A stretch of DNA of 47,162 nt from Candidatus Bathyarchaeota archaeon (GTDB taxonomy: Archaea > Thermoproteota > Bathyarchaeia > Bathyarchaeales > Bathycorpusculaceae). The stretch covers positions 1 through 47,162 of the forward strand of contig CAVZIW010000005.1 of the NCBI GenBank assembly GCA_963775465.1. Direction: 5' to 3'. A program made the translations under genes and the position numbers. A model generated the notes under the pieces. It was not told the DNA's origin. It was given only the letters and a program-made list of their open reading frames with translations, and did no database searches. This document shows, piece after piece, positions 17,133 to 39,232 of this stretch. Numbering within the stretch: position 1 is the first letter of the stretch; the number at the start of each line of letters is the position of its first letter.

Positions 17133-18368
17133 TCAAGTTTTCAGTCGTCGATAAAGATGTACACCAGCGATTTCATCGTATTTGCTGTAGCCTATCTTAG
17201 CTAATGCCTCGGCTTCTTCCACTGTTGTAGCTCGTGCCGTCTCCCAATCCAAGTCGTTGAAAACCACCGTGTTAGTGTATCGATCCGTACTTACACTGGA
17301 TTTGTGTCCGAGTTTCTGCTGAACCTCTTTTTGCGGTTTTAACTGCTTAATTAGCCTATGAGCGAAGCCGTATCTGAAGGTGTGAATATGAATTAGTCTT
17401 AGTCGGTCTGCTTCTCCGGGGTTATGTCGGCAAACTTTTTTTCGTAACTTTTGGAATTGGACGGTGTGAGCGTTGGGGTTAGGGTTGAATATATACGGGT
17501 CGTACTTGCGATCTATTGATTGTATTCGGGCTATAGTTGCTTCTTGAACTTTTATTGTTCTTGCTTTGCTGCCCTTCTCAGGCATATTGATGCTGATTGT
17601 ACAGTTTGCCGTGTTAACGTCGCATCGTTTGATGTGTGCAACTTCTCCTCGTCTTGCGCCTGTGTCATGCACTGCTTGAAGGTATGCGCCAAATCTTGGA
17701 CCTGCGCTGTTAACGTAGAGTTTTAGCTCGTCAGGGGTAGCTATGAAGGCCTCTTTAGTTTCGTAGTTTACTTTGATTGGTTCCCAGAAAATCTTTAGAG
17801 CTTTGCAATAACTTAAGTATGCTTTTACTGTGTTGAATTTCTTGGAGGGTTTCTCTTTATCGTTATATTCTGGTTCAGTCGCCAGGACCGTTTCGACACT
17901 ATTGGGATTGTTGAGGTCTGCGCCTTTTGCTATGAGTTTGCTTAGCCATGAACAGTTAGTTCCTATTGTGCCGTCGCCGACGCCTTTCTTTTTCTTTCGC
18001 CAAGCGTATTCTATTAGGTTTGCTTCCTTTACACCCGCAACAGTCTTTGTTTCTGTTGCAGTCGCCAAATTTTTCGAGTTCTCCTCGCATATTCGACGCT
18101 TAGAAAGTAAGGCGCTTTGATTATTTAATTGCCACTTTAAACTTTCTTTTAATGGTTTAGGTCGGCTGGGGTCAGAGAAGCGGTGTCCATATTTCTTGCA
18201 AAACCAAAGTTGAACCACACGTCCATCAGCAAGACGGCGCACTCCATACCGGACTGTTTTAGCTAAGTGACATCGCGGGCATAGGGGGTTGGTGCTGGCG
18301 GAGTCCTCAAAATCCGACTTCCCTACAGTTTCACCAGCTTCGTCGAATATGCGGTTAACGGAAGCCAA
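17133..18368 (-). CDS. Tyrosine recombinase/integrase with N-terminal Zn-ribbon
   Basis: TGARRGEV (R), KGS (K), HTFR (H-x-x-R), LGH and TDRY (Y). TTG at 18368 follows GGGAGGGAGAGG. Confidence 0.92.
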   Translation of the reverse strand: MASVNRIFDEAGETVGKSDFEDSASTNPLCPRCHLAKTVRYGVRRLADGRVVQLWFCKKYGHRFSDPSRPKPLKESLKWQLNNQSALLSKRRICEENSKNLATATETKTVAGVKEANLIEYAWRKKKKGVGDGTIGTNCSWLSKLIAKGADLNNPNSVETVLATEPEYNDKEKPSKKFNTVKAYLSYCKALKIFWEPIKVNYETKEAFIATPDELKLYVNSAGPRFGAYLQAVHDTGARRGEVAHIKRCDVNTANCTISINMPEKGSKARTIKVQEATIARIQSIDRKYDPYIFNPNPNAHTVQFQKLRKKVCRHNPGEADRLRLIHIHTFRYGFAHRLIKQLKPQKEVQQKLGHKSSVSTDRYTNTVVFNDLDWETARATTVEEAEALAKIGYSKYDEIAGVHLYRRLKT

Positions 18369-18382
18369 CCTCTCCCTCCCCT

Positions 18383-18598
18383 TTATCTCAACCTGTCTTT
18401 CACTTTTGTATCCTCTTCTTTGATTGGTGCCTCGTAAACGGCGAGATAAACTCCCAACTCGGCTACAAACACCAAAGCCCTCACCACCGGATTCACAGCC
18501 GTATGCTCCCGCCGACAAGCCTCTGCACGTGCAACAGCTAAGACAGAACCAAAATCAACCGTACGCTCATTAGGAGAAATCACGATTGCCTTGAACAT
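18383..18598 (-). CDS. Small hypothetical protein between the Rep-like gene and the integrase
   Basis: Fills the gap between co-oriented genes, overlaps the upstream gene end and stops just before the integrase RBS. Confidence 0.55.
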   Translation of the reverse strand: MFKAIVISPNERTVDFGSVLAVARAEACRREHTAVNPVVRALVFVAELGVYLAVYEAPIKEEDTKVKDRLR

Positions 18599-19527
18599 TG
18601 AGGACACCTTCCACAACAGAAATTTAATTTACTAGCGATAACTTCTTGCAGCGTTTTTTTCGGGGTTTCAGTAACTTCCCATCTAATTTTGCGAGAACGA
18701 TCTTGCTCATGAACATAAATCCTTGCAAGCTCCCCACACCACATCTTAAAAGTGATGTTAAATGCCTCTCCACTGAACTCTTGAGCGGAATCCTTTCCAT
18801 AATGCCACATAACAACCTTCCAAACCTCAACAGCAGGAATACTCTTCTCAGTTAACTTTTCATCAACTATCCTGCATGTATTGAGAAGTTGGTTACGAAC
18901 ACCGCCGATAAATGCAGCCATGCTTACAAAACCTACGGCACTTGCCTCTACAGGGCAATTTCCACAATTTAAAACAAAAGTAACCGTCCCGTTGCAGTGT
19001 AGTGTAACTTGAACTGATTGATATTTAGACCATCCAAAAGAGCCGAAGGAAATATCTTTAGACGACACTTGTGGCGTGTATTTACCAGTACTTAAGAGAA
19101 GCTCGTAAAGCTGGTCAGCGACAAAAGCTAATCTAACATCATGAACTCTACAGAGTTCTTCCGCAGGTAAAGACTCTAGCAACGCTAAAAGATCAATCTT
19201 GACACTCCTAAGTCCGTTACCCCCCATACGGGATACTGTCATTACTTTTTTAATTTTAGACCTATCAACAGATTTCAGGTTATAAAATGCGTATCTTGAC
19301 CTACAATATAATCCGATTATTCCATGTCTATTTAGTTTACAGATGATGTTTCTTGCTGTTCCTTTTGACCGTATCCCAGCTGAATCCATTAAATCTCCCG
19401 AACAAAAAGGTCGTGTTGGATCAATCATTATCCACCTCAATGCTTTCATTTCGACCGGGGACAGCAAGCCCGTCCAATGCTCCAACCCACCCCAATGCTC
19501 CAAAGTGTCATTGTCACTGGTTACCAA
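18580..19527 (-). CDS. wHTH-containing protein, candidate replication initiator of the element
   Basis: N-terminal wHTH pattern (KGTARNIICKLNRHGII), HDVRL motif, C-terminal RIY...IRWE; AAGGTGA before TTG. Function inferred. Confidence 0.55.
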   Translation of the reverse strand: MVTSDNDTLEHWGGLEHWTGLLSPVEMKALRWIMIDPTRPFCSGDLMDSAGIRSKGTARNIICKLNRHGIIGLYCRSRYAFYNLKSVDRSKIKKVMTVSRMGGNGLRSVKIDLLALLESLPAEELCRVHDVRLAFVADQLYELLLSTGKYTPQVSSKDISFGSFGWSKYQSVQVTLHCNGTVTFVLNCGNCPVEASAVGFVSMAAFIGGVRNQLLNTCRIVDEKLTEKSIPAVEVWKVVMWHYGKDSAQEFSGEAFNITFKMWCGELARIYVHEQDRSRKIRWEVTETPKKTLQEVIASKLNFCCGRCPQCSRQS

Positions 19528-19772
19528 GCGATGTCACCTTTTTGATGGGTTCAAGAATTATGCGTTCCTTATCATCCAGCTTAACTATGAAGAGATCAGT
19601 ATTTTCTTCACCCAGCTTAAGTCTTAGCTTTTTTGGAATAACAATGATTTTCGAGTTATCAGTTAGGTATGCCTTACATGTTGTAATTATTGTCTCCATT
19701 AAGTGCATCCTCGCAATTATTGACAAAATAGATATGTTAGTTGGATACCATGGGGTATTTTGGTGGCTTCGT

Positions 19773-20903
19773 ATGGAAAGTACAGACAAGTTAGATGTTG
19801 GTGACTATGCTTGTTTTACATGGAAAAAAACAGACGGTTCAGCGATAGGGGCAAGTGAGGGTCTTTTTCTTGGATGTTTTGGCGATGAAATTTCAGGAGA
19901 ATTCTTGGTATTTGACAGGAGTTGTTATAAGGATTCCTTTAAAACTGGCGTTTTTTCACTGGGAATCCATGACCTAAAAATTGTCCCTGCTAACGAAATA
20001 AACAGCGTTAATAGGCGCTGGTTAAGAGACCGCCCGCCTAACCAATCCGAGAAGTTTAGTTTCTTAGTTGATGCTTTCTATTATTCTAACATTGATTATA
20101 AAGCCACATATGACTTCATCCAAAACATAAATCATTCATTAAAATTAAAGATCATCGGCAATTCAAAGGCTGAATATGGGATAAATATCAAAGCGATTCC
20201 TTCCGCTTCAGAAGCATCTATTAACATAACTTGCAAAGGTAAAATCCAAATCACTTGTCAACAGGCAAATATGGATAAATGCATCAATTGGCTGGAAAAT
20301 ATTGTAAAATTACCTGAAAACCAAAAGAGGTTTGTTCTGTTCCCCAAACAAATTGCTTATCGAGTTTTTGATTCCTTTAAAGAAAAGTCCGTTCCCCCTG
20401 AAACTCTTATTGAACAAATCGGCTCAATCGAAGGTTCAGCAATTATAGTGCCCCTTGGCTGGGAACAAAAGTTCCTAAAAGAATCAGACCGCAATGCCTT
20501 GTCTGATATTTTGAATAATGATTATCCGAATACTGCACAAAATAGCAGTTATTTAAGACATCAAGAGCAAGGAAGCAAAAGTGGATTGACCGTTGAGAAA
20601 TACATTGGAAATAGAACGCCTTGTATGAGATTGATAGGTCAAATCTTGAAACAAGAGGATGAAGATGGACTCCTAAGAATGTGGGAGGAGTCACGTTCGG
20701 ATGTTAGTCAAGTTTTTGATACTGGAACTTCAAATGGAGAACAAATTAAGGCACATGTATTGATACATGATCTGGTAATTGACAAAAAAACAGGTCGCTA
20801 TAAAGTATTAATTCGATCATATTATGATAATCAATTTAATAATATATCACCTAAAAAGAACATAACCTCCAAACTTAAAACCAATCACTCAAACACAGTA
20901 TAG
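19773..20903 (+). CDS. Hypothetical protein (376 aa)
   Basis: Long open frame; ATG 19773 avoids overlap with the divergent gene. Confidence 0.65.
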   Translation: MESTDKLDVGDYACFTWKKTDGSAIGASEGLFLGCFGDEISGEFLVFDRSCYKDSFKTGVFSLGIHDLKIVPANEINSVNRRWLRDRPPNQSEKFSFLVDAFYYSNIDYKATYDFIQNINHSLKLKIIGNSKAEYGINIKAIPSASEASINITCKGKIQITCQQANMDKCINWLENIVKLPENQKRFVLFPKQIAYRVFDSFKEKSVPPETLIEQIGSIEGSAIIVPLGWEQKFLKESDRNALSDILNNDYPNTAQNSSYLRHQEQGSKSGLTVEKYIGNRTPCMRLIGQILKQEDEDGLLRMWEESRSDVSQVFDTGTSNGEQIKAHVLIHDLVIDKKTGRYKVLIRSYYDNQFNNISPKKNITSKLKTNHSNTV

Positions 20904-20995: not shown

Positions 20996-21210
20996 GTGTT
21001 GGCTAAGCAATTAGGATTAAATGGAAAACCTGTTAACGGTAATGGTGCTAATGTTGGTTTTGAGGATAAACTCTGGAAAGCCTCTGACAAAATGCCCAAC
21101 AACATGGACGCAGCCGAGTACAAGCATGTAGTTTTGGGTTTGATTTTCTAAAATATATCTCTGATGCATTCAAAGAAGTTTATGAAGAAGTAAAAAGTGA
21201 CCCCCGAGAA
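20996..21210 (+). pseudogene. hsdM: 5' remnant of type I restriction-modification methyltransferase
   Basis: Manual translation [35 protein letters not shown]-(frameshift)-KYISDAFKEVYEE matches the HsdM N-terminal motif; the rest of the gene is absent. Confidence 0.85.
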
Positions 21211-22178: not shown

Positions 22179-24095
22179 TTGGATGACATTACAATCGACA
22201 CGGAACCCTACCAAGAACAAACCGAATTGAAACATAAGGTAATTGGAGATTATTTTGATAAATGGGTGAAAATACTTGGCGTTGGATTTGGGGGAAAAAT
22301 AAACTACGTTGATGGTTTTGCAGGTTTGGGCGCTTACAAGAAGGAAGACGAAATATTTTATGGTTCACCCATTATTGCATCGGAAGTAATTGAAAAAAAT
22401 CTCAAATTCATAAAAAGCGTACAAATGATTCTAATCGACAAAGATGAAAAAGTACTTTCAAATTTAAAAAATGTATTTGTGTCCAAAAACTTACTAAACC
22501 GCCCTTATCTTAATGTTCAGTTTATTCACGAAGATTTTAACAAAGCAATGGTAGAATATTTAGAAAATGGAAAACTCAACTACGCGCCAACCTTTGCTTT
22601 CATTGACCCCTTTGGGTTTGAGGCTGTTCATTTTGATACAATTAAAAGAATAATGCAAAATAACAATCGCTCAGAATTTGTCATTAACTTCATGTTTAAT
22701 GCAGTCAGCAGGTTTCTCAGAAGAGAAGACCTCACAGAAACATTCAACCGTTTTTTTGGAACGAACGACTGGAAGGAAACCACATCTAATGTTGAGAATA
22801 GAGAGGAAATCCTAGTCAACTACTACGTATCACGACTAAAAGAAATTTCCAAAATAGTCGTTCCTTACAGATTGAGATTCCCTGACAAAAATAGAACCTA
22901 TTACTACCTTATTCATCTTACAAACCATCCGCTTGGAGCCACAATAATGAAAAGTAGCTTTGCAAAATATTGTCAAGGTCGAAACGTCTGGCTAGGACAT
23001 GACTCAGTGCAAAGCAGTTTGGAAGAGATTCTAGGGATACGAAGTTCCGAAGTCAAAGATTTGCTCTTGAAAAAATACAAAGGTAAATGCATCTCTTACG
23101 AACAAATAATTATTGACAACATAGGTGATACATGTTATCTAGATACTCATTTCAAGAATGCAATCTTGGAACTCGAGAAAGAAAATAAGGTGTTTATTGA
23201 TAGGTACCCCAAAATCGGAGAAAGCGGAAGACCGCTGAAAAGTATCCAATTTAATACAAAATTGTATTTTGAGAGTTTCCCAAGTATAGAAAGAAAAACA
23301 TTGCTTTACGAAACTAAGGTGGAATATGGGAATTTTACGATAAATCACGTGTTTGGTTGCTCTCATGGTTGTAAGTATCCTTGCTACGCTTTTTTATTGG
23401 CGAGAAGGTATGGTAGAGTTCAAGAATATGAACAATGGTTACATCCAAAGATAGTATCTAATGCTCTCGAGTTATTGGATAAAGAGATTCCACAATATAA
23501 GAAGAAAATAGACTTTGTTCATCTATCTTTCACAACAGACCCATTCATGTTTGACTCGCTTAACCTAAGAGTTTTTCCAGCCATAAGTGAGCTTACTCTA
23601 AAAATAATTCAGAAACTAAACAAGGAAGGCATAAAAGTCACAGTATTAACAAAGGGAGTATTTCCAAAAGACCTTTTAGATATAAACCAATTCAACCCAG
23701 CTAATGAATACGGAATAACACTGGTATCGCTCGACAAAAAATTTTGGAAGGAGTATGAACCATATTCCGCACCGCCTGAAGAAAGAATAAAGTCATTGGA
23801 ATTATTGCATAAAAGCGGACTTAAAACTTGGGTAAGTATTGAACCTTATCCGACTCCTAACATAATTAAGCAGAACCTAACCTCAATCCTCGAAAAGATA
23901 AATTTTGCGGATAAAATAATCTTTGGCAAGATGAATTACAATAAAAGAGTATCTGATTTTGACAAAGGAGAAGAATTCTTTGCTAATTGCTCAAACACGG
24001 TTATTGAGTTCTGCAGGAAAAACATCAAGCAATATCACATAAAGAAAGGCACCCCTAACAACTCATCCGAAACTGCAGAAATATTTGGCAAATAA
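22179..24095 (+). CDS. tcmP: Fusion of TcmP-family (three-Cys-motif partner) domain and SPL-like radical SAM domain
   Basis: N-half TELKH, YVDGFAGLG, GSP, FIDPFG, EFVINFM. C-half INHVFGCSHGCKYPCYA, SFTTDP, LTKG, EP..ERI, TWVSIEP. Confidence 0.85.
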   Translation: MDDITIDTEPYQEQTELKHKVIGDYFDKWVKILGVGFGGKINYVDGFAGLGAYKKEDEIFYGSPIIASEVIEKNLKFIKSVQMILIDKDEKVLSNLKNVFVSKNLLNRPYLNVQFIHEDFNKAMVEYLENGKLNYAPTFAFIDPFGFEAVHFDTIKRIMQNNNRSEFVINFMFNAVSRFLRREDLTETFNRFFGTNDWKETTSNVENREEILVNYYVSRLKEISKIVVPYRLRFPDKNRTYYYLIHLTNHPLGATIMKSSFAKYCQGRNVWLGHDSVQSSLEEILGIRSSEVKDLLLKKYKGKCISYEQIIIDNIGDTCYLDTHFKNAILELEKENKVFIDRYPKIGESGRPLKSIQFNTKLYFESFPSIERKTLLYETKVEYGNFTINHVFGCSHGCKYPCYAFLLARRYGRVQEYEQWLHPKIVSNALELLDKEIPQYKKKIDFVHLSFTTDPFMFDSLNLRVFPAISELTLKIIQKLNKEGIKVTVLTKGVFPKDLLDINQFNPANEYGITLVSLDKKFWKEYEPYSAPPEERIKSLELLHKSGLKTWVSIEPYPTPNIIKQNLTSILEKINFADKIIFGKMNYNKRVSDFDKGEEFFANCSNTVIEFCRKNIKQYHIKKGTPNNSSETAEIFGK

Positions 24096-24097
24096 GA

Positions 24098-24460
24098 TTA
24101 AGCACTCACTAACCTCGGAATCCATCGTTCTTTTTCATGTCGTAGGAACTTTGCAAATAATAATGCTTCTTCGCCAATCAACGTATCAATTGTTTGTCTT
24201 TTGCCAACTTTGATTCTCTCTACATCGACAAAGCGGTCAAAGAAAGCGGTTAAATCCTCAGCTAAACTATCGGTTTCATACTCTTTGAGATGTATTTTCT
24301 TGCCCATCTTAAGATGTATCATAAAGTCAGTTACCAGCACGAAATCTTTTTTGCGTAGTTTTTGGCATCGTTCAATCAAGAAATCATCAATCAAATATCT
24401 GTATAGCTCTTGGAAATCGCATACTAAACTGGGTTTTGCCATGTTGAACAGAGTGAAGGA
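24098..24460 (-). pseudogene. cas1: 3' remnant of a solo Cas1 (casposase-like) gene
   Basis: LHSVQHGK-(one extra A)-PSLVCDFQELYRYLIDDFL matches the Cas1 G-F-L-H...SL..D..E..R..ID region; the N-terminal part is missing. Confidence 0.82.
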
Positions 24461-24740
24461 GTTCAAAATTGTGTGTTGATGTTTTAATTTGAATGGTTAA
24501 AGCTTTGCAGTACTACCAATACTGAATTGAACGATATTTTGCTAACAGAGCTTGAGGGAAAAGACAGCGCACTACAGGACTTTACGAGCGTCTTTGGAAT
24601 AGTGATAAAGCTGACAGAAAATTCAATTAGTTCCCTATTTATCCCAATTTGGGAGATATCCACGATAAAACACTATATAACAACGTTATATTTATTATGG
24701 GGTGCCCATAAGTATTACCTAAACACAATTGGTGATTTTT

Positions 24741-25103
24741 TTGAAAGATGAAAAATTTATTTTGTACGTGCAAACCAGCGACAACCCAGAAAGACAATAC
24801 TCTCCATTAGTCTTGGCCCAGACCGCCAAAGCTATGGGTTTAAATCCGAAAGTATACTTTTTAGGTCAAGGCTTAAGAGTGCTTCTACCAGGAGCAGCTG
24901 AAAAAATTAAACTTGGAGCATTCCCCAGTGTTGCAGAAATGCTACAAAAAACAATGCAGATGGGCATAGAGATCGATGTTTGCGAAGCTTCCAAACAAAT
25001 GCTCGGATGGGACAAAGTAACCCTAATCCCGGGAGTAAAAATCGTTGGAGCAGCAACCCTAAACGACTTAGCACTAAGGTCAAATGCCACCATGTGGTTC
25101 TAA
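24741..25103 (+). CDS. DsrE/DsrF-like family protein
   Basis: VYFLGQG, IDVCEAS, IVGAATL; GGTGA before TTG. Confidence 0.85.
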   Translation: MKDEKFILYVQTSDNPERQYSPLVLAQTAKAMGLNPKVYFLGQGLRVLLPGAAEKIKLGAFPSVAEMLQKTMQMGIEIDVCEASKQMLGWDKVTLIPGVKIVGAATLNDLALRSNATMWF

Positions 25104-25156
25104 AAAAACCACAATTCACAATTAAATAAAAATGTACGTTGATTGAAGAGGATTCT

Positions 25157-25393
25157 ATGACTGCTAATATTGACAAAAAACTAGATACTGTGGGATTATC
25201 TTGCCCTGAACCAGTCTTTAGGACCAGATTAACCCTCGATGATATGGAAATAGGTCAAACTTTGGAGATTATTGCTGACGACCCCGCCGCAGAATCAGAC
25301 ATTCAAAGTCTTGCAAAACATTTAGAACAGGAGTTGGTTTCCAGCTCCAAAGAAGGCAATATTATAAGAATTTTAATTAAAAAAATAAAATAA
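25157..25393 (+). CDS. tusA: TusA/SirA-family sulfur carrier
   Basis: LDTVGLSCPEP and DDPAAESDI motifs. Confidence 0.9.
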   Translation: MTANIDKKLDTVGLSCPEPVFRTRLTLDDMEIGQTLEIIADDPAAESDIQSLAKHLEQELVSSSKEGNIIRILIKKIK

Positions 25394-27197: not shown

Positions 27198-27247
27198 GTG
27201 TTTATCACCATATACTAATATGGTCATGGAGGCTTATGGTAGTTGCC

Positions 27248-27518: not shown

Positions 27519-30068
27519 TTGCAAAACAACAAAAATAAAACTATGGCTATTTTAATTATAGTATTGCTAACAACTTCAATGACAGCTACAATTACCTTTC
27601 TGCCAACTGTAGATGCACACACACCAGAATGGAAAATTTCTACTTATGCTTATGTCAATGTCGCACCAGACCGTGTAGGTCTTGGTCAGAGAGTATTTCT
27701 TACGATGTGGGCTTACTTCCTTTTGCCCGGCGCAGCCATACCAAACGACATTCGAATGACCCAATACAAACTGAACATAACCAAACCCGATGGAACAACA
27801 GAAATACTTGGTCCATTTACAGGCGATACCACAAACACCATCTACACAACATACTCGCCAGACCAACTTGGAACATACTCAGTACAACTATTTTACCCTG
27901 ATTTGGTCTACAACTGGGGTGGCAGCTATCAAGACGATACATTCCTAGGCGCAACAAGCAAAACTACCTACTTTACCGTACAGCAAGATCCACTGCCAGA
28001 CATAGCTGAATATCCACTTCCAACAGAATACTGGTCTCGCCCCATAGAAGGGCAAAACTCTGACTGGGCAACAATTGCCTCAAATTGGCTTGGCACAGGA
28101 TCACCTCAAATCGGAACAACTAACTTCCAAAAAGACGGTACAGCCCCAAATAGCCCACACATAATGTGGACCAAACCAATACAAAACGGAGGCGTCGTCG
28201 GAGGAAGCAACGTTGGAATCGAAGGCAACACATTCTATCAAGGAGGATCATACAACCACCGATTCGCCAACCCAATAATAATGTATGGAAGACTCTTCTA
28301 CACTGAACCCCTCGGACTCTCAGGAACCGCAGGAGATACAGTCTGCGTTGATCTACGCACAGGAAACGAACTCTGGCGAATACCAGATATGCCCAATCTA
28401 TCATTTGGATACTATTACGATGCAGACACACCCAACCAACACGGTGTCTTCTACGAAGGCATACTATTCACAAATAACTTTGGTCAAGCATTTGACCCAC
28501 GCACAGGAAATCAACTCTTTACCGTAACCAATGTTCCGTCAGGTACATCATCTATTGGCGAACACGGAGAAGTCCTACGATACGTCATTACCAACGCAGG
28601 CAACAATTCCAATCCAGATTGGCGTTTGAAACAATGGAACTCATCTAAATTATGGAACTTGGCTTCAAACACCCCAACAATACAATCAACAGTGGATGCA
28701 AGCACACCCGACCGATTTGATTGGGATGTCCCAATATCATGGCGCAATGGCATGTCTTCAGTTAGCGTACAAGCAGGTTACACAAATGATTTACTACTAG
28801 GTAGCAACGGCACGCTACCCGCATGGAGTAATACAAATACAGAATATACAATGTGGGCAGTAAGTCTTAAGCCAGAATCAGCAGGGCACCTTCTATGGAT
28901 GAAAACCTATCAAGCACCCCCAGGAAACATTAGCATCATAATTAGACCAGAAACAGTTGATCCACAATCACGAATATTCACCATATACGAAAAAGAAACA
29001 ATGAACTGGTACGGTTACAACCTAGACACCGGAGACAACCTATGGGGACCAGTCGAAAACCTAAGACCATTTGACACTTTCAGCGGCTCAGTAACAACAG
29101 AAAACACAGGATCACATCACGTAGCCTACGGCAACCTATACGTTAGCGGCTATGGAGGACTACTCTACTGCATCAACGCAACAACCGGCGAACGCCAATG
29201 GACCTACGGCGGAGACAATCCAGACGGCAACAATACATTCAGCGGCTTAGCATCTCCATGGGGATACTGGCCAATTTTCATCGGAGCCATTGCAGACGGC
29301 AAAATTTACATGTTCACCAACGAGCACTCTCCAAACACACCCCAATACAAAGGCGCATTAATTCGCTGCCTTAATGCAACAACAGGCGAAGAACTCTGGA
29401 CACTAACAGGATGGGGCGAAGGCGGTTCATTTATGAGCAACAACGGAGCCATCGCAGATCAACAATACACATACCTAAACACTTACGACATGCAAATATA
29501 TTCAGTCGGCAAAGGACCCAGTGCAGTTACAGTTTCTGCTCCACAAATAGGCGTTCCAACTGGATCATCAATCACCATACAAGGCACAGTAACCGACATC
29601 TCATCTGGAACAACACAAACTGAACAAGCAGCAAGATTCCCAAACGGCGTCCCAGCGGTCTCTGACGCAAGCATGAAGGGCTGGATGGAATACGTCTACA
29701 TGCAAAAACCACGTCCAATGGACACGACAGGGGTTCAAATCGTTCTTAGCGTTGTTGATGCTAACGGAAACTATCGCGACATAGGAACAACAACAAGCAA
29801 CGACGGATTCTTTAGCTTCAACTGGGTGCCTGACATTGAAGGTCAATACACTCTATATGCTTCCTTTGAGGGCTCTGAATCCTACTGGCCATCACACGCT
29901 ATTACAGCCTTCAGCGTTGATCCACAAGCACCAACAGCAACACCATCTGAAGCACCTCCACAATCTGCAGCTGATATGTACTTTGTTCCCGCAATCGCTG
30001 GACTGTTCATTTTGATCGTAGCAGTGCTGATCTTGGTAGTATTGCTAACTTTCAAAAAACGACCATAG
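27519..30068 (+). CDS. PQQ-like beta-propeller repeat surface protein with C-terminal TM anchor
   Basis: Signal peptide, repeated D/N..TG..LW blade motifs, PLPTEYWSRP, C-terminal Ig-like domain, TM plus KKRP. Confidence 0.88.
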   Translation: MQNNKNKTMAILIIVLLTTSMTATITFLPTVDAHTPEWKISTYAYVNVAPDRVGLGQRVFLTMWAYFLLPGAAIPNDIRMTQYKLNITKPDGTTEILGPFTGDTTNTIYTTYSPDQLGTYSVQLFYPDLVYNWGGSYQDDTFLGATSKTTYFTVQQDPLPDIAEYPLPTEYWSRPIEGQNSDWATIASNWLGTGSPQIGTTNFQKDGTAPNSPHIMWTKPIQNGGVVGGSNVGIEGNTFYQGGSYNHRFANPIIMYGRLFYTEPLGLSGTAGDTVCVDLRTGNELWRIPDMPNLSFGYYYDADTPNQHGVFYEGILFTNNFGQAFDPRTGNQLFTVTNVPSGTSSIGEHGEVLRYVITNAGNNSNPDWRLKQWNSSKLWNLASNTPTIQSTVDASTPDRFDWDVPISWRNGMSSVSVQAGYTNDLLLGSNGTLPAWSNTNTEYTMWAVSLKPESAGHLLWMKTYQAPPGNISIIIRPETVDPQSRIFTIYEKETMNWYGYNLDTGDNLWGPVENLRPFDTFSGSVTTENTGSHHVAYGNLYVSGYGGLLYCINATTGERQWTYGGDNPDGNNTFSGLASPWGYWPIFIGAIADGKIYMFTNEHSPNTPQYKGALIRCLNATTGEELWTLTGWGEGGSFMSNNGAIADQQYTYLNTYDMQIYSVGKGPSAVTVSAPQIGVPTGSSITIQGTVTDISSGTTQTEQAARFPNGVPAVSDASMKGWMEYVYMQKPRPMDTTGVQIVLSVVDANGNYRDIGTTTSNDGFFSFNWVPDIEGQYTLYASFEGSESYWPSHAITAFSVDPQAPTATPSEAPPQSAADMYFVPAIAGLFILIVAVLILVVLLTFKKRP

Positions 30069-30267: not shown

Positions 30268-31092
30268 TTAAGTGAATCCCTGGCTCCAAAGTAATCCAAA
30301 ATATGCTTTGCATAAAGCGGAGAAGACAGGATTATTTGTAATCAAGTAAGGAGACATTTTGGTCAGTTGTAGACAAGCTGTTTCTATGCAAATTGCATGT
30401 TTGTCAAAAAGAATCATTATACATTCCACGGGGTTAGGAACATATCTATATTCAAAGTTGGCATGTTTGAGCAAGTAATTTGAAGTAGGAATCTCAAAAG
30501 AAAACTCAGACAGTGTTTTTAGATTTTCTGGTTTTTCTAATATCATCCTGAATTTCACGCCGCGCTCAGCAGCGTAGTACATCTCATTTATCCATTCAGT
30601 TAAGCCTGTCTCGTTGAAAGCTGTAGAAAATAACGGGTATCTTGTTGTGAAATCAAGTGTTTGTTTGGTGTTCCTGATGAGTCTAATTAAATTGGAATCA
30701 ACACCCGTCTTGTTATCACGATAGACGACCACTGTTTTCTCTTCTTCAACAACCTTTGAAATCAACTCGGAATAGCATGAATGTAAAAATTCATTGGCGT
30801 TGTCCTTAAGCTGTACATTTTCCTCTTCTCGTCGGCAAAGAAGAATTTTTATTGCCTCGTCGGGAGGGATAGCCTCATACTTTGCGGGAGTATTAAGGTA
30901 TTTTCTCACCAAACCTAATTCTTGAAGGGCAGGCAAAACACGGTATACATCTTCTCGTCCAACAACAGAGTTTTTTGCAATAATTTTTGCAGTAGCTATT
31001 CCTGTCTTTAAAGTACCAAGATAAACTTTGGCTTCGTTTGGGGAAAGACCAAGTTTTACAAGTGTTTCTGTATGCTGCCCAAGAGATACCAT
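30268..31092 (-). CDS. TrmB-family transcriptional regulator
   Basis: LGLSPNEAKVY, REDVYRVL..LQELGLV, PAKYEAIPP wHTH plus effector domain. Confidence 0.9.
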   Translation of the reverse strand: MVSLGQHTETLVKLGLSPNEAKVYLGTLKTGIATAKIIAKNSVVGREDVYRVLPALQELGLVRKYLNTPAKYEAIPPDEAIKILLCRREEENVQLKDNANEFLHSCYSELISKVVEEEKTVVVYRDNKTGVDSNLIRLIRNTKQTLDFTTRYPLFSTAFNETGLTEWINEMYYAAERGVKFRMILEKPENLKTLSEFSFEIPTSNYLLKHANFEYRYVPNPVECIMILFDKHAICIETACLQLTKMSPYLITNNPVFSALCKAYFGLLWSQGFT

Positions 31093-31266: not shown

Positions 31267-33825
31267 ATGAAAAAAGCGATAAACAAAAAAATAACACTTT
31301 TTGCTATTTTACTACTATTATCTTCAGTATTTACAATGATTACTATTACACCAGTAGAAGCACAACTTGCACCTGAACAACCGGTCAGTGGACCATTACC
31401 GTCAGGCGTAACAGTTGATGTTATGGCTGATTCTGCAGCTTTTTTAAGCATTAGACCAAACCCAGTTGGCATAGGCCAGCAATTCTTAATCAACATGTGG
31501 ATTAATCCTCCACCGCACGCTTATCGACAATATCTTGATTTGGAACTCACTGTAACTAAGCCAGATGGAACCAAAGATGTGTACGTTGTGGATTCTTATG
31601 TTGCTGATGGGACGGCTTGGATGGAACTGATAGCAGATCAACTTGGCGACTGGAAATTCCAGTTAGAGTTTCCAGGCATCTACTTCCCTGCAGGACGGTA
31701 TTTGGACGGGCATTCTATAATAGAAAACACTGGCGGATCAGTCTACAGCGCAGTCTACGTTAAACCAAGCATTTCACCCGTTACAACACTGACCGTGCAA
31801 CAAGACATGGTATATGGATACCCCGAATACCCTCTCCCAACCGATTACTGGTCACGACCAGTCAATCAAGAACTAAGAGACTGGTGGCCTATTCTAGGCA
31901 ACTATCCATGGTTCGGAGTCGGCGGCGGAGAAAAATGGGATGAACTCTATCCCAACACGAATCCATATGCTAACCAAGGACAAAACTTCATACCCTGGGT
32001 TCAGGGACCTGACAGTGCCCATATTGTATGGAAGCGAGAAGGTGCCCTCGGAGGAATTGTTGGCGGCGATAACACTGACAACAGTGTTTATTGGCCAATC
32101 ACAGGGTGGAAAAATGCACCAACTGTAATACTTTGGGGACGAGGTTACCATACAGTAACCAAGCCAAGCATAGATGGTCCAAGCGAAACAACTTGGTGGC
32201 AATGCTACGACATACGGACGGGTGAACTATTCTGGGAAAGACCATTATATCCTGGTGAATCAGAGCCAAACTTAATTGAATACGGCGCAACGGCTGTTCC
32301 ACCAGTACCAGGTGTAAGCATAAAGCCAGACACACCATATCTACTTTCAATAAGTAATGGTTACCTATGCAAATACGACGCATTCAGTGGAGCAATGTTC
32401 GCCAACATCTCGATTTCTCCCTTGACAGGTAACGGGGGAACTTACTACATGAACGGATACGTCTTAGGTATCCAAAATCTTGGGACGGGAGCAGGAGCAG
32501 ATCAATATCGATTAATAAACTGGACCACACTAGGAAGCAGTAGCTCCTTTATTTCAAGAGTGGTTAGTAACACAACATACAGTAGTAGCAGGTTATTAGG
32601 CTCTGCAAACATTGACTGGAACGTAATGTTAGGTGCAACTGCAACCAATTACATGTCAGGTGGCATTAGTACACACACAATTGTACAAGGATTCGACATA
32701 TTAACTGGACAATCACTGTGGAATAAAACTATTCAAGAGCCTCTCTTTAGCGGAAGTGCATGTGTTGCAGATCATGGAAAATTCGTAATAATTACAACAA
32801 GAGGATACGCCTACGCGTTTGACTTAAGAACGGGTGAGATTGCATGGAAAACCGAGCAATTTGACTATCCATATGACGCTACAGGTTGGGGAAGCTACTC
32901 TACTATAAGTGGTTATGGTAACTTCTACTGGCTTGCACAAACTGGAGTCTACTCTATAGATTGGGCGACTGGAAAAATCAACTGGAAATTTGAGAAACCA
33001 ATGGAGTACCAATACGAAGGAGCATTCACAGGAGTAGACGGAGAAACAGTGTATCCAAACCACGCCCCCGGAATACTAGCCGATGGCACACTATTCATAC
33101 CCTCAAGCCTACACTCTCCTGAATCGCCATACTACAGAGGACTTAAAACATTTGCAATCGACGCTATCACAGGTGAAGAGAAATGGAGTTTAGGCATCTC
33201 AGTTGCAGGGCAACACACCCGAAGCAGTTTGCAGCTACGAGTCGCTGATGGATACTTAACAATTGGAGCCAGAGACGGATACATGTATGTTGTGGGCAAA
33301 GGACAAAGTTCAACGATGGTTTCAGCGCCTCAAACAGAGGTTCAAGTGGGACAGAAATTCACAATCACAGGAACCGTCTTTGATATGTCACCAGCTCAAC
33401 CTGGAACCGGTGCCATAGCCGATGAATACATGGATTCCTGGATGCAATACATACATCTACAGCTTCCAAAGCCGACCGATGCAAAAGGAGTTACAGTAAA
33501 CCTAACCGCGATTGACCCTAACGGCAACCTAATAACCATAGGCCAAGCCACATGCGACACTAATGGTGTATTCGGTTTCACTTGGTCTCCTGAGGTTCCA
33601 GGTCTCTATACGGTCGTTGCTTCATTTGCTGGGACAAATTCCTACGGCAGTTCAATGGCAAGCACATACTTCAGTGCAGTTGACGCACCAGTAAATACTC
33701 CACAGCCAACCACAGCAATCCAAACAACATCAGACATGTACTTCATTCCAGCAGTCGTTGGCATAATCGTCGCCATAGCCATAGTCGGCGCGACAATAAT
33801 TCTTGTGCTTCGTAAGCGACCATAA
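31267..33825 (+). CDS. Second PQQ-like beta-propeller repeat surface protein
   Basis: Same architecture as 27519-30068 (PLPTDYWSRP, DIRTGELFW, DLRTGEIAW, TM plus RKRP). Confidence 0.88.
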   Translation: MKKAINKKITLFAILLLLSSVFTMITITPVEAQLAPEQPVSGPLPSGVTVDVMADSAAFLSIRPNPVGIGQQFLINMWINPPPHAYRQYLDLELTVTKPDGTKDVYVVDSYVADGTAWMELIADQLGDWKFQLEFPGIYFPAGRYLDGHSIIENTGGSVYSAVYVKPSISPVTTLTVQQDMVYGYPEYPLPTDYWSRPVNQELRDWWPILGNYPWFGVGGGEKWDELYPNTNPYANQGQNFIPWVQGPDSAHIVWKREGALGGIVGGDNTDNSVYWPITGWKNAPTVILWGRGYHTVTKPSIDGPSETTWWQCYDIRTGELFWERPLYPGESEPNLIEYGATAVPPVPGVSIKPDTPYLLSISNGYLCKYDAFSGAMFANISISPLTGNGGTYYMNGYVLGIQNLGTGAGADQYRLINWTTLGSSSSFISRVVSNTTYSSSRLLGSANIDWNVMLGATATNYMSGGISTHTIVQGFDILTGQSLWNKTIQEPLFSGSACVADHGKFVIITTRGYAYAFDLRTGEIAWKTEQFDYPYDATGWGSYSTISGYGNFYWLAQTGVYSIDWATGKINWKFEKPMEYQYEGAFTGVDGETVYPNHAPGILADGTLFIPSSLHSPESPYYRGLKTFAIDAITGEEKWSLGISVAGQHTRSSLQLRVADGYLTIGARDGYMYVVGKGQSSTMVSAPQTEVQVGQKFTITGTVFDMSPAQPGTGAIADEYMDSWMQYIHLQLPKPTDAKGVTVNLTAIDPNGNLITIGQATCDTNGVFGFTWSPEVPGLYTVVASFAGTNSYGSSMASTYFSAVDAPVNTPQPTTAIQTTSDMYFIPAVVGIIVAIAIVGATIILVLRKRP

Positions 33826-34354: not shown

Positions 34355-34521
34355 TCGAAGCTCTCTAAGTCTAGCATCCTGCTCCATTTATCTTCAACCT
34401 GATGCTTGCCAAAAGATAACTTGTTGCAGGCAAAAACCAATCACCTCTAAGCAGTGAATAAGAATGAGTAAAGTTTGCTACGATGAAAGGAAGTCTAAGA
34501 GAGTCTGGAAATTAATTCGAC

Positions 34522-35086: not shown

Positions 35087-35349
35087 TGAAAATAAGCACA
35101 ATAACATAAAATTTTATCAAGACTCTCAATTCTTCCCTCGGTACCTCAAAGAAGCGGTCATGCGTTTTCTACTAAGGCTGCTTCTGATTTCGTTATTTAT
35201 TCTAGTATTACTCGTCCCTTGCTTGCGTTTCCAAAACGGGTTATTTTCTAGGCTTTCATATCGCATTACGCAGTAGGTTATTTGTATATCGCTGAACTAA
35301 TCACATTAGGGAACGCACACTTACCACATAAAATACGAAGTTGGAATCA

Positions 35350-36477
35350 ATGGTTGAAAAAAAGAATTACTACGAGAATTTAGGCATTCCAAAGGATGCA
35401 TCCAAAGACGCGATAAAAGACGCCTACAGAAAACTAGCCATGCAATATCATCCAGACAGAAACAAGTCTCCGGAAGCTGAAGAGAAGTTCAAAGAAATAT
35501 CGGAAGCCTACGCAGTGCTGTCAGACGATGAGAAACGCCAACAATATGACAATTTAGGTAGTAATGGATTTGATCAAAGGTATAGTCGAGAGGACATTTT
35601 CCGAGGGGCCGACTTTGACTCGATATTTCGCGACATGGGTGTCAGTTCCGGCTTTGATGATCTTTTCAGTGTTTTCTTTGGGGGACGAGGCTTTGAAGGA
35701 AGACAAAGAGCAATCCGTGGACGAGATTTGGGCTACGAAGTATACATAACCCTTGAAGAAGCAGAGCGCGGTGTTGAAAAAGAAATTGAGGTCCCAAGAA
35801 TTGAGCGTTGCCCAGTTTGTGGGGGTTCTGGAGCTACTCCTGGTTCTTCACTGCAAACTTGCCCAGTATGCAAAGGTTCTGGAAAAGTCCAAAACACAAT
35901 AAGAAAACGTTCTGGCACGTTTATACAAATCGCGCAATGCTCTGCTTGCAACGGCACAGGACAAAAAATTATTTCCCCATGCAGAAACTGCAACGGAAAA
36001 GGCCTCATAAAAAGGGAAAGAAAAATCACGGTTAAGATACCAGTTGGAATAAATGAAGGAAACCAGCTTAGGCTTGAAGGACAAGGAGACGCAGCCCAGG
36101 ACGGAGGTCCCTCAGGAGATTTATACATAATGATTCACCTGATGCCTCATCAATACTTCAAAAGAGAAGGCGACGATCTCTTGTACAATCTATACATCGG
36201 CATTACGCAAGCATCATTAGGTGCGGAAGTCACGCTACCTGCAATCGAAGGGAAAGCTACACTGAGAATTCATCCTGGAACACAACCTGGACAGATTCTA
36301 ATAGTCAGAGGCAGAGGAATGCCGAGAATGGGCGGATATGGCAGAGGCGATCTGCGCGTCCGTGTGAATGTGGTTGTTCCCAAAAAGCTAACTCAGCGCC
36401 AAAGTGCCCTTCTGGAAGAGCTGGCCAAAGAACTAGACCAGAATATCGATGAAAGAGCGAAAGCCAATGTACTATAA
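35350..36477 (+). CDS. dnaJ: Class A molecular chaperone DnaJ
   Basis: J domain with HPD, G/F-rich region, four CxxCxGxG repeats, C-terminal domain. Confidence 0.97.
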
Positions 36478-36510: not shown

Positions 36511-36915
36511 TTAAGGTTTGTATTGAAGAGAAACCGTTATTCGTTTACGACTTAAACTAGTTTTAATTTCTGAGTTAATTTTCGAGTTTTCTTTTCCTTT
36601 GCTTGCGTGACCAAAACGGGTAATCTTCCAATTTTTGAGATTGCCTCTGATTAACTGTGGGTTGCTTGTTAGAATGTAGAAGGGCGTTTTTGTTTGGGAA
36701 GAGTAGAGTTCAGCGATAAAGTTTAGGAACCGTTTGCCAACTCCGACTCCTTGATAGTCCGGTAGCACAACTAGTCGGCTTACTCTGTAGTATTTTGCTT
36801 TCATTCTTACGCATGCGACAGCTATGAATGCTATGGGTTTCTCTTTATAGACTGCCGCGTAACACCGAACACCGGCACCCAAAGAACCGTTTAGATAATG
36901 ATGCTGCCGAAACAT
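36511..36915 (-). CDS. GNAT-fold acetyltransferase (phage-type), probably the C-terminal half of an ABC-ATPase-GNAT fusion
   Basis: FRQHHYL and RLVVLPDYQGVGVG; the frame stays open upstream to the A9 run at 36971-36979. Confidence 0.82.
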   Translation of the reverse strand: MFRQHHYLNGSLGAGVRCYAAVYKEKPIAFIAVACVRMKAKYYRVSRLVVLPDYQGVGVGKRFLNFIAELYSSQTKTPFYILTSNPQLIRGNLKNWKITRFGHASKGKENSKINSEIKTSLSRKRITVSLQYKP

Positions 36916-36952: not shown

Positions 36953-37570
36953 TTAACGGCGGCCGACTTCTTTTTTTTTGCTAAACTCCATTGTATCGGT
37001 GGAGAAAACCCAGTCAGGATCTAACCAATCAACCACATCATAGTGACAAGTAACAGCAATGAATTTCTTTGCGCTTCTGCGAACTGCCTTGCTGATGGCA
37101 AAGGCGCTGACTTTAGCTATTTCTCGATCGACAACGCTTGTGAACTCATCAAAAACGATCAAAGGCTGCTCAAGACACAATGCTCTTGCGATGTCTACCC
37201 GCATCTTTTCTCCCTGACTCAAACAATCATAACCTTTTAGCCAGTCCGGTGGACTAGCAAACCCGACACTACAAAGTATCTTTGTAATCTCACCAGTTTC
37301 AAGCTCTTGGGGAAAATCATCAAGAACACACTTACCGTTGTAATCAAATTCTCGGATGTAGGCTTCCGGGAAAAGCTGCTTAGCTATGCTGGTTTTGCCT
37401 GAACCGCTGCGCCCAACAATGACGCCGACTTGCCAATCAAAAGTTTCCAGTGGCAAATTGCCCTTAAACCGTTTCTCCAACTTTACGTCGTTTAGGGTGT
37501 AGCTGCCCACGACGCTCTGGGCTCGGAAGCTGTCGGATTCTTCCCATTTTTTTACTATGTCAAAATCCAT
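36953..37570 (-). CDS. Non-transporter ABC ATPase
   Basis: Walker A GRSGSGKT, signature LSQGEK, Walker B IVFDEFTS, H-loop VTCH; no permease nearby. Confidence 0.88.
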   Translation of the reverse strand: MDFDIVKKWEESDSFRAQSVVGSYTLNDVKLEKRFKGNLPLETFDWQVGVIVGRSGSGKTSIAKQLFPEAYIREFDYNGKCVLDDFPQELETGEITKILCSVGFASPPDWLKGYDCLSQGEKMRVDIARALCLEQPLIVFDEFTSVVDREIAKVSAFAISKAVRRSAKKFIAVTCHYDVVDWLDPDWVFSTDTMEFSKKKEVGRR

Positions 37571-37584: not shown

Positions 37585-38160
37585 CTAAAGTGTTAGGATT
37601 CTTAGTTTGAACCCCTGGGCTTTTAACTTCTCAAAATATTCTTTTTGTTGTGCCTCTGATTTACATTCAATTATGAGCTCGTAGGTTTCAGGAACCGAAA
37701 AAGAGACCTCTCGATCATCTACCTCTATAGGAAGCTTTTCGCCCACCGATTGAAGAAACAACTTTAATTCCTCTTTCTCTCCCTCGTCAATTATGCGCAG
37801 GTACTCGGCACTATCCATCTCCCTGTTATGTTTGCCCCGTAGCTTGTTTAGCACCTGCCGAAGCAAACGGCGATCAACATCCTTAACTGGCAAGCGAATG
37901 ACGCTGCACTCAGTCATACCAAGCTCCTTCATAGCCGTAACACGCTGCTGACCATCAGCCACCAAAAGCTCACTGTTAGTGACGACTGGAACGATGTCGC
38001 CCCATCGCTTAATTGAAGATTTTAAGCGGTCAAGCTGCATAAGAGTTAATCTGTTAGGGTTGTCTTGGTCAAACTTTAGTTCGCTGATTCTTACTCGCTC
38101 CGACATTGGAATTGGAATTTCTTTTTCATTTTCCACTGATTCTCTGCTAAGTACGCTCAT
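37585..38160 (-). CDS. ParB/sulfiredoxin N-terminal domain protein (phage type)
   Basis: NPN...LKSSIKRWG..PVV...VADGQQRV.A...LG and LNKLRG; no HTH. Confidence 0.85.
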   Translation of the reverse strand: MSVLSRESVENEKEIPIPMSERVRISELKFDQDNPNRLTLMQLDRLKSSIKRWGDIVPVVTNSELLVADGQQRVTAMKELGMTECSVIRLPVKDVDRRLLRQVLNKLRGKHNREMDSAEYLRIIDEGEKEELKLFLQSVGEKLPIEVDDREVSFSVPETYELIIECKSEAQQKEYFEKLKAQGFKLRILTL

Positions 38161-38222
38161 ATTTTCAAACTCTCCCTAAATGTTAATTGACAAATTTGGT
38201 CATTTTCCGATTTTTTCATAAA

Positions 38223-38939
38223 CTAGTCGCACTTTTCAGCACATGTTGGACATTTCTCTTTAAGGTAACGTGCATTAAGTGCGTCACACTCCGCGTTCTC
38301 CGCTTGTTCTTGCTGTTCTTCTAATTCTTCCACCCTTGCTTGCTCAGCTGTCCTGTTAGCAGTTAACTGTTGAATATTCTGGGTTGTTTTGAAAACGTTA
38401 TGTGCTTCACAGAAGCGATTAAAACTCTCAGGAGTAAATAAGTCATGGTTCCAAGCCGCATAGACGGGGGCTAAGAGTCTTTCTTGTTCACCTTCACATA
38501 GTTTCCAATATCCAGGGGTTTTAAAGACTGCTATTTCTGCGTCGAATTGTTTTTTGAATTTGCGGGTTTCTTCTATTAGCCAATAGAATCGTGTGTAGAA
38601 GACCCAGTTGGCCATGGGGTCTTTTAGCGTAACAAAAGCATCTGTGAAGACTTGAAAAATCTCAAATACTCTAGCCATAAACCGGCGGTTAGCTGCATCT
38701 ACGATTGCTTGATCATCTGGTGACAGGGGGGTACAGGTGGTTTCTCCCCGATCGGCTGCTTGCTGCAATTCTTCTCCATAAGCCTCCAAGATATGGCTCG
38801 CTCGTCTATGTAACTCGTTTTCAGCTCGATCTAACTCTATGTCACCGTTGTCCCATGTTATCTTTGTAGTGCCTTCTTGGGGAAGTTCAGGCAACACATT
38901 TTTTTCTAATAAATGCAGTTTCCTACTTAAAATGTTCAT
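38223..38939 (-). CDS. Hypothetical protein with C-terminal Cys cluster
   Basis: ATGA-coupled to the upstream gene; ends CPTCAEKCD. Confidence 0.7.
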   Translation of the reverse strand: MNILSRKLHLLEKNVLPELPQEGTTKITWDNGDIELDRAENELHRRASHILEAYGEELQQAADRGETTCTPLSPDDQAIVDAANRRFMARVFEIFQVFTDAFVTLKDPMANWVFYTRFYWLIEETRKFKKQFDAEIAVFKTPGYWKLCEGEQERLLAPVYAAWNHDLFTPESFNRFCEAHNVFKTTQNIQQLTANRTAEQARVEELEEQQEQAENAECDALNARYLKEKCPTCAEKCD

Positions 38940-39232
38940 TTCCGCTTATCCTCCGGTTTAGGTATTAAGATGCTGTTTTTGAGCTGCTCCTCTAAGGTTA
39001 TCACCCGAAGCTCCAACTCCTCATCCTTTAGCAAGGGACCATAGGCTGAGACTGCTGAGACTAAAACTCTCGCCCAACCCAGCTTAGCTTTGTCGCTGTT
39101 TCCTTCAGAGTGAATTTTTTTGTGGGATAGGCTTAAAACTCCGTCTAATACGCGAAATAGCGTGTTTCTACGCTCCTTTGTTGAACGGTTTGATGATGGT
39201 TTCTTAACGGTTTCAGCTTCAACGTTGCCCAA
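38936..39232 (-). CDS. Small helical hypothetical protein
   Basis: First gene of the minus-strand run; ELELRVITLEEQLK coiled segment. Confidence 0.7.
   Translation of the reverse strand: MGNVEAETVKKPSSNRSTKERRNTLFRVLDGVLSLSHKKIHSEGNSDKAKLGWARVLVSAVSAYGPLLKDEELELRVITLEEQLKNSILIPKPEDKRK

Follow-up and report, generated by a model that had tools for sequence, protein, structure and literature searches.

A probable integrated copy of a Bathyarchaeia mobile-element family, marked by orf315 and a tyrosine integrase

Cryptic integrated elements (CIE) of archaea, defined for Thaumarchaeota (PMC6563490), are the closest described category to the genomic island treated here, as far as the accessible part of that paper characterizes them. 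The island lies in the window, meaning the whole 47,162-nt stretch of DNA that was analysed, which is the complete contig C5 of the Candidatus Bathyarchaeota genome G000 (15 contigs, 2.42 Mb, 92% complete, 3.45% contamination). It is marked by a gene named orf315 and by a tyrosine integrase, occupies positions 17102-41949, and is probably an integrated copy from a family of mobile elements confined to Bathyarchaeia. In that same account, CIE and the island share a XerC/XerD-type tyrosine integrase and short flanking direct repeats, lack viral and conjugative hallmark genes, and carry type I restriction-modification (R-M) genes as well as further cargo for defence or metabolism; Cas1 is one of the recurrent CIE genes. 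The island differs in its host class, in a core without any Pfam family, in a virus-derived gene trio, and in having only a fragment of Cas1. Bathyarchaeia are abundant in sediments and soils, and their non-viral mobile elements are almost undescribed.

Phage-inducible chromosomal islands (PICI) carry an integrase at one end with divergent small regulators adjoining it, a helper-derived packaging module at the other end, and no capsid genes. By analogy, the family resembles this layout in its integrase end, its putative divergent regulators, its module of apparent viral origin at the opposite end, its lack of capsid genes, its compact form of about 8-10 kb, and its several copies per genome. 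It differs in having no identified primase or replicase and in having captured ParB-ABC-GNAT instead of TerS or capsid-size factors. The window copy, at 24.8 kb, is also much longer than the compact form. The trio has the same ParB-N/ABC(-GNAT) order as in temperate siphoviruses with phrog_11143 proteins (Streptococcus phage 315.4, Pseudoalteromonas phage SL25); here, in contrast, there is no terminase, two genes named orf98 and orf238 precede the trio, and a convergent surface-protein gene follows it in G000.

Head-tailed viruses and proviruses of Bathyarchaeia have been described (PMC10848311, PMC11705971), and the main text of PMC10848311 contains zero occurrences of ParB or acetyltransferase. 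They probably share the host class of the element, whereas TerL, portal, and an HK97-type capsid are encoded in the viral contigs only. The accessible text of a 2025 preprint names pSSVi and pSSVx as the only archaeal satellites before its own spindle-virus satellites. The available texts on Bathyarchaeia mobile elements and archaeal satellites were found to describe neither the orf315 core nor the trio as part of an archaeal element, and no literature was found on the combination of a ParB-like protein, terminase, acetyltransferase, and ABC protein. Within the bounds of those texts, the orf315-integrase family is undescribed in Bathyarchaeia.

The insertion is far beyond chance. The 47-kb window contains exactly two copies of an 11-nt direct repeat, CCTTTTGGAAA, one at each breakpoint, and homology both to a paralogous region on contig C6 of G000 and to a metagenome contig with an empty site stops at the left copy. 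The C6 empty site has a single related copy of the 11-mer. The genes for prepilin peptidase (16006-16803) and pfkB (41973-43052), 25.2 kb apart in the window, are separated by 300-599 nt on a single contig in 26 of 30 congeners; in the remaining four, the peptidase gene, pfkB, or both were not found or lay on separate contigs. Window positions 1564-17111 correspond to C6:291793-304108 and positions 42132-45698 to C6:304280-307839, and since the two matches adjoin there, the flanks are contiguous on C6. A 608-nt contig from one of four soil-metagenome runs of one study, whose assembled contigs were searched, matches 16640-17101 with 11 differences and continues with the 146 letters following 41949. 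This contig, of low depth (about 5x), is the empty-site allele joined at the repeat.

Because breakpoints, repeat, and empty allele coincide, the island measures 24,848 bp; the span of 17133-39232 in the original prediction was too narrow at its right end. A tyrosine recombinase, flanking direct repeats, and an empty site in relatives are thus found together, as in integrative elements. The repeat search itself ranked the attachment (att) sequence only as a 23-nt pair with 78% identity, and the pair was accepted after synteny and the metagenome contig were considered. The GC content of the island is 0.401, compared with 0.432 in the flanks, and drops to 0.35 only within 20-27 kb. The window contains no tRNA, the island contains no internal copy of the 11-mer, and no inverted repeats were found at its ends. 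A fuzzy search for the att core near other copies in G000 gave nothing convincing. A 117-nt contig from one soil run matches 17067-17101 and is preceded by 82 unrelated letters; therefore, the att region exists in another context.

The gene set recurs elsewhere. orf315 was found at 39 loci, 4 in species-representative genomes, all of them metagenome-assembled genomes (MAGs) of Bathyarchaeia, and 35 in metagenomes; 31 of these loci are non-redundant. Homologues carry Bathyarchaeia names, and orf315 was not found in IMG/VR. These locus counts are lower bounds because they are based on tblastn with few queries, and they include mutually non-independent loci from related populations; the denominators below are loci with enough flanking sequence, termed informative. 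A 77-aa open reading frame (ORF) follows orf315 at 13 of 28 informative loci. By tblastn, a tyrosine integrase lies within 3 kb downstream of orf315 at 14 of 22, a figure that rises to 17 of 22 with a second, divergent recombinase type (PF00589, E 6e-7). A divergent upstream gene, encoding either a 367-aa protein or a MarR-like protein, is present at 12 of 23. The ParB/ABC/GNAT module lies within 10 kb upstream of orf315 at 5 of 13 informative loci, and a Cas1 C-terminal piece is present at four loci. The core of the family is orf315, the 77-aa ORF, and the integrase, together with an AbrB-like gene. The backbone first proposed does recur, and the order of orf315, 77-aa ORF, and integrase is conserved in Bathyarchaeia loci, but the module and the Cas1 piece are not universal and behave as accessories that return in some copies.

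Co-occurrence of the backbone genes outside the window, the check attached to the original prediction, is clearest at the homologous locus L017 (L-numbers denote homologous loci elsewhere, C1-C15 contigs of G000, and G099 an orf315-bearing locus in another genome). There, orf98, orf238, ParB, ABC, GNAT, Cas1 piece, orf315, small ORF, and integrase stand in window order within 8.2 kb, with four further small genes and a MarR-like gene between GNAT and orf315. The host SMC gene begins 133 nt past the L017 integrase, and L020 has the same SMC junction with other cargo (an HsdM homologue beside a homologue of a 516-aa window ORF). None of the ORFs upstream in L017 and L020 recurs upstream of SMC in seven relatives, except for an integrase fragment in L058. 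In L014 and L019, a tRNA lies within 60 nt past the integrase, tRNA-Leu in the former and tRNA-Ala in the latter. Cargo differs among copies: L014 carries a complete type I R-M system, and L019 a NERD protein. Within G000, orf315 and/or the small ORF with an integrase are also found on C6 and C1 in window order. Among 60 other congeners two carry orf315, and among 40 relatives one carries orf238, a sporadic distribution. Together, the att pair, the empty site, and the recurring loci bear out the prediction of an integrative element with a recognizable backbone and variable cargo, and the listed genes were found in the window on the predicted strands and in the predicted order (Table 1). The family supplies a precise att site, a tractable integrase, and a marker gene with which further copies can be recognized.

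Table 1. Features of the island, in window coordinates.
Feature	Position	Strand	Match or remark
attL core, 11-nt direct repeat CCTTTTGGAAA	17091..17101	none	two copies in window; homology ends here
Tyrosine integrase, N-terminal Zn ribbon	17133..18518	minus	PF00589 E 6e-13, 49.4 bits (cut-off 27.1); phrog_1 E 9e-21
77-aa ORF, between orf315 and integrase	18383..18616	minus	conserved
orf315, winged helix + alpha/beta domain (predicted), family signature gene	18580..19527	minus	AlphaFold2 model, structure searches
AbrB/MazE-like small DNA-binding protein	19514..19705	minus	PF04014 E 6.5e-7, above cut-off
Divergent 367-aa gene (real part of 516-aa ORF)	about 19800..20903	plus	no family match
HsdM N-terminal stub, 51 aa (type I R-M)	20996..21151	plus	PF12161 E 2.3e-5
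TcmP + three-Cys radical-SAM-like fusion	22179..24095	plus	TIGR04474 E 4.9e-56; PF04055 E 9e-10; PADLOC PDC-M30A E 7e-27
Cas1 C-terminal third, open frame	24098..24466	minus	PF01867 19 bits, below cut-off 22.3; PADLOC Cas1 E 8e-7
dsrE + tusA	24729..25393	plus	PF02635 E 1.6e-14; PF01206 E 1.2e-20
Small secreted protein	26901..27227	minus	
Propeller surface protein 1	27519..30068	plus	PQQ_2
TrmB regulator	30268..31092	minus	TrmB match
Propeller surface protein 2	31267..33825	plus	PQQ_2
Three GNAT 3' stubs	34043-34387, 34530-34683, 35126-35266	minus	Zn-ribbon mini-gene remnant between stubs
Extra dnaJ	35341..36477	plus	DnaJ, DnaJ_C, CXXCXGXG domains
GNAT	36511..36915	minus	phrog_11143 E 7e-26
ABC ATPase	36953..37570	minus	phrog_11143 E 7e-59
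ParB-N	37585..38160	minus	phrog_620 E 1e-14
orf238, all-helical (predicted)	38223..38939	minus	precedes trio
orf98	38936..39232	minus	precedes trio
DUF1508 protein, 90-aa membrane ORF, double-winged-helix regulator, DUF7482 protein	39462..41348		inside island, beyond 39232
attR core, second copy of 11-nt repeat CCTTTTGGAAA	41939..41949	none	breakpoint + repeat

The integrase frame is intact, with its stop codon 31 nt from attL. The protein contains the motifs ARRGE, HTFRY, and DRYT at residues 288, 379, and 412, and its start is probably a TTG codon at 18368. Family scans covered 31 island ORFs with Pfam and ten of those also with PHROGs, NCBIfam, and PADLOC. The 77-aa ORF has no family match in these scans and, by its position, is a candidate regulator or excision factor. 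The AbrB/MazE-like gene is kept in L014, L015, L016, L020, and G099. A 516-aa ORF on the plus strand runs antisense to it for its first ~150 codons, and homologues of the remaining 367-aa gene adjoin orf315 in C6, L014, L015, L016, L020, and G099.

orf315 was originally called Rep-like, a label that found no support: no Rep, primase, or helicase family matched it, nor did any entry of Pfam, NCBIfam, PHROG, or PADLOC. Its 50 homologues in the protein collection are all annotated as hypothetical, and none has a Pfam domain. The AlphaFold2 model (mean pLDDT, a per-residue confidence score, 74.7) predicts an N-terminal winged helix, which resembles winged helix-turn-helix (wHTH) folds with Z up to 9.6, and the only PDB profile match is likewise a wHTH (E 0.014). 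The best Foldseek match of the C-terminal alpha/beta domain is TBP, a weak likeness (E 6.9e-4, TM 0.27/0.41), and a Rep_trans chain ranks 17th in the orf315 Foldseek list (E 1e-2). In VIA-align, the rows were taken by wHTH proteins, and the C-terminal domain was barely probed. On this model, orf315 is read as a putative DNA-binding protein.

In the proposed mechanism, the integrase would have recombined a site on the element with a host site sharing CCTTTTGGAAA, in the promoter region upstream of pfkB, and the window integrase itself would presumably catalyse the reaction at that core. The core genes form a string, (AbrB-like gene), orf315, 77-aa ORF, and integrase, with the integrase always last before the host junction, and the products of the first three may control or direct the attP x attB reaction. 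The module of orf98, orf238, ParB-N, ABC, and GNAT sits at the far end, with exchangeable cargo between it and the core. To judge from homology, ParB-ABC-GNAT might recognize or process DNA as it would upstream of terminase, and might serve either maintenance or the hijacking of helper packaging. A single att pair still bounds the copy, and the block is present or absent as a unit between close strains.

Several observations weigh against a mobile element of this kind. No replication gene was identified in the island, and the att core is short (11 nt). The empty-site contig diverges by 2.4% in its flank; therefore, it represents another strain and is no proof of excision. A terminal-overlap check found no circular contigs among the loci, and no circular junction was found among the assembled contigs of the four metagenome runs. 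In seven loci (L014, L017, L019, L020, L024, L026, L032), the integrase-proximal junctions share no exact repeat of ≥12 nt with DNA upstream of the element. At 8 of 13 informative orf315 loci no module was detected, and the same holds for the 9-15 kb inspected upstream in the two congeners that carry orf315; what looks like a backbone may therefore be a core to which an accessory is frequently added. Comparison with seven relatives did not fix the left boundary of L017. In addition, contig C5 may derive from a co-binned congener, and the 24.8-kb block may be past mobility, given its GNAT, HsdM, and Cas1 stubs.

The island is an accreted, partly decayed mosaic, which contains three GNAT stubs, an HsdM stub, and a Cas1 piece. 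It is possible, and already raised in the original prediction, that it is a stack of dead elements at a hotspot, assembled through repeated insertion and deletion, in which membership of the orf315 family is limited to the few kb nearest the integrase and no unit moves today. Next to one intact GNAT are the 3' stubs of three others, which implies at least two or three earlier copies of the module. Blocks are shared piecemeal with C3, C8, C1, C10, and C7, and the GC minimum of 0.35 is confined to one segment of the island. The region upstream of SMC varies among seven relatives of the L017 genome, and most informative orf315 loci lack a detected module. This tentative reading is opposed by a single att pair and a single integrase with no internal 11-mer, by the empty-site contig, from which the window differs by the whole block, and by an order of parts collinear with both the C6 island and compact L017. 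With its decay and paralogous blocks, this alternative is partly right; one integrated copy remains the preferred interpretation.

The blocks of the island are 68-85% identical in nucleotide sequence to those of the C6 island, largely in the same order, and small island genes are common to C1, C10, and C7. The propeller/TrmB block (26901-33825) is 85% identical to C6:14664-17203, and the dsrE/tusA pair has paralogues on C3 (92%) and C8 (84%). The dnaJ gene of the window stands alone, and a C12 copy matches it at 82% identity; dnaK and its linked dnaJ lie at C1:228709-232409. Proteins of ~850 aa with a signal peptide, propeller, Ig domain, and transmembrane anchor occupy dozens of paralogous regions in G000 (about 50 by eye), with paralogues on C1, C3, C4, C6, C7, C8, C10, C12, C14, and C15. 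A row of three GNAT 3' stubs is also present in another MAG (L016, 344-2987), and such rows look like repeated recombination or insertion at the module end.

At the position of the HsdM stub, L014 has full HsdM/S/R genes; L015 has ORFs homologous to all three, and L020 one homologous to HsdM. In three of the four metagenome runs, contigs match only the conserved stretch 21093-21126 within the stub and differ on both sides of it; they apparently represent HsdM genes from other organisms and not the window locus. The neighbouring fusion protein joins a TcmP domain (TIGR04474, 190.6 bits against a cut-off of 53, residues 13-264) to a three-Cys radical-SAM-like protein (Radical_SAM, residues 388-554), the composition of the TcmP/three-Cys pair. 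It also matches PDC-M41A and PDC-M41B, although the DUF5131 and PDC-M41B matches are weak and start from residue 378. The accessible literature yielded only passing mentions of TcmP. The original prediction named two candidate DNA-modification modules, a reading that stays putative: the fusion's PADLOC matches are to defence candidates only, and the ParB-ABC-GNAT trio is a module of virus packaging regions. The cargo probably protects the host, as its matches to defence candidates and R-M genes suggest, and the family would make defence and surface-protein genes mobile within Bathyarchaeia.

The island was predicted to fit neither provirus, integrative and conjugative element (ICE), nor casposon, and the genes that define each are indeed missing. 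Capsid, terminase, conjugation, and PolB genes are absent from the scans. Specifically, no VirB4/VirD4-type transfer ATPase family, as expected of an ICE, and no TerL, portal, or HK97 capsid, as expected of a Caudoviricetes provirus, was found among the 31 island ORFs. T2SSE/T2SSF pilus genes (4976-8546) lie outside the island, and the C6 paralogue of the pilus locus reaches the empty site. The 17-kb type IV pilus locus and the sugar-nucleotide genes that follow it are present in two copies in the bin at 65-72% nucleotide identity; this doubled region is either an old segmental duplication or the contribution of a co-binned congener.

The ABC ATPase and GNAT of the window both match one viral family of fused proteins, phrog_11143, and in L024 the whole trio is fused into one 607-aa ORF (1912-3735) beside orf315 and an integrase. 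orf98 and orf238 accompany the trio in element copies where found. The model of orf238 is all-helical (pLDDT 82.7) with no PDB match at E 0.001, and its best protein-atlas score of 0.80 gave no lead. Within G000, the five-gene module is present on C5, C4, C6 (frameshifted), C1 (decayed), and C12 (partial). In all four module copies with sequence beyond GNAT, a convergent ~850-aa propeller gene comes next.

In IMG/VR, 163 stretches match the ABC protein; the analysis retained the best 80 and inspected the 25 closest. All 25 contigs carry ABC and GNAT, with ABC copies 69-81% identical to the element ABC, and 24 carry ParB upstream; the remaining contig begins at the ABC gene. The contigs with the closest trios encode a capsid of HK97 type. 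Downstream of the trios, seven of ten ORFs scanned on four contigs match viral hallmark families, namely large terminase (phrog_2, E 6e-44), portal, major head protein, and tail protein, with TerL, portal, and major capsid in L069, TerL and portal in L075, and portal in L080. orf98, orf238, and orf315 are absent from the 25 contigs, and none carries a full-length integrase of the window type, although a 36-aa stretch of one contig matches the Zn ribbon of the integrase. orf238 has no match in IMG/VR in a search that reaches close relatives only. The viral contigs open at gene starts, like trimmed proviruses, and their ends are therefore uninformative on genome termini. In a phage collection, 80 records match the ABC protein, with 41-51% identity among the 25 matches listed, and the ParB-ABC pair stands upstream of large terminase and portal in both records inspected.

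An ABC tree of 42 sequences (36 of the 80 viral loci and 6 element copies, midpoint-rooted only) left out L024 and C6, which had no long alignment. Five of the element copies, C5, C4, C1, L017, and L019, group in a single clade (support 97/90) placed among the viral sequences, and the C12 copy is a long branch outside it. The trio was thus probably captured once from head-tailed viruses, and its predicted role would be packaging-site recognition or maintenance. A widespread phage trio that lies beside terminase is here tied to a non-viral element, which offers a route to the function of the trio and to the question of satellites.

Capture of the trio makes it conceivable, if rather doubtful, that the element is a PICI-like satellite of head-tailed Bathyarchaeia viruses, whose helper-type ParB-ABC-GNAT would get its own DNA packaged in helper capsids. 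The high identity of the element ABC to copies upstream of TerL/portal/capsid genes on the scanned viral contigs, the same pair upstream of TerL in bacterial phages, the lack of TerL, portal, and capsid genes in the elements themselves, and the compact form of about 8-10 kb would fit such a satellite, as would the resemblance to PICI in layout and a single capture followed by spread among elements. A homologue of a 132-aa helix-turn-helix (HTH)-like protein is also common to viral contigs. Set against this, G000 (92% complete) showed no helper provirus, IMG/VR gave no match to orf315, the elements have no identified replication module, and the trio module is undetected at most informative orf315 loci. 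If the satellite interpretation is true, this would be the first satellite system of tailed archaeal viruses, given that the accessible text of the preprint describes only spindle-virus satellites, and a packaging-recognition role would extend to the widespread ParB-ABC-GNAT genes of phages.

The 132-aa HTH-like protein is paired with a ParA/MinD ATPase in L017 (2625-3823) and C1 (28251-29404). It lies beside the module in L017, near the integrase on C1, and after GNAT in the viral loci L079, L080, L083, and L085.

Alternatively, the island could be the remnant of a head-tailed provirus that lost its structural genes, an improbable origin. ParB-ABC-GNAT is a provirus module, an integrase is present, and the IMG/VR contigs start at gene starts in the manner of trimmed proviruses. 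This origin is contradicted by 11 viral TerL/portal/capsid/tail queries that found no match in G000 or the orf315 loci, by four module copies that end cleanly after GNAT, and by the element trios, which form their own clade. The absence of orf315 and orf238 from IMG/VR and of a full-length window-type integrase from the 25 viral contigs points in the same direction.

The Cas1 gene, predicted as a solo Cas1, proved to be a fragment, which aligns to residues 216-341 of a 344-aa Cas1 with 46% identity and falls below the Pfam cut-off. No full-length Cas1 was found in G000, where PF01867 stays below cut-off genome-wide. The pieces in the window (24098-24466), L017 (8852-9241), and L057 (4687-5046) begin at about the same residue (~216-224 of 344), all have open frames, and are 45-58% identical to one another. 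Many full-length Cas1 proteins share 82-86% identity with the L017 piece. A copy from the resident full-length Cas1 of the L017 genome was rejected as its source, because that protein is only 28% identical to the Cas1 type of the fragments.

Recurrence of a Cas1-derived ORF inside the elements is the argument for a casposon or another Cas1-driven element, which is nevertheless extremely unlikely. Only the last ~125 residues of Cas1 are present with no full-length protein in G000, PolB and terminal inverted repeats at the island ends are lacking, and the flanking direct repeat with a tyrosine integrase accounts for the insertion. A bolder suggestion is that the recurring cas1 and GNAT 3' stubs could be secondary attachment sites for such elements or cassettes. 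Shorter Cas1 3' pieces of ~200 nt are found at C2:62591, C3:309750, and C4:41146, with flanks that show no homology.

Beside the integrase copy on C1, the segment C1:35584-39999 contains ORFs of >1200 aa in several frames and on both strands, and is probably repetitive or compositionally biased DNA.

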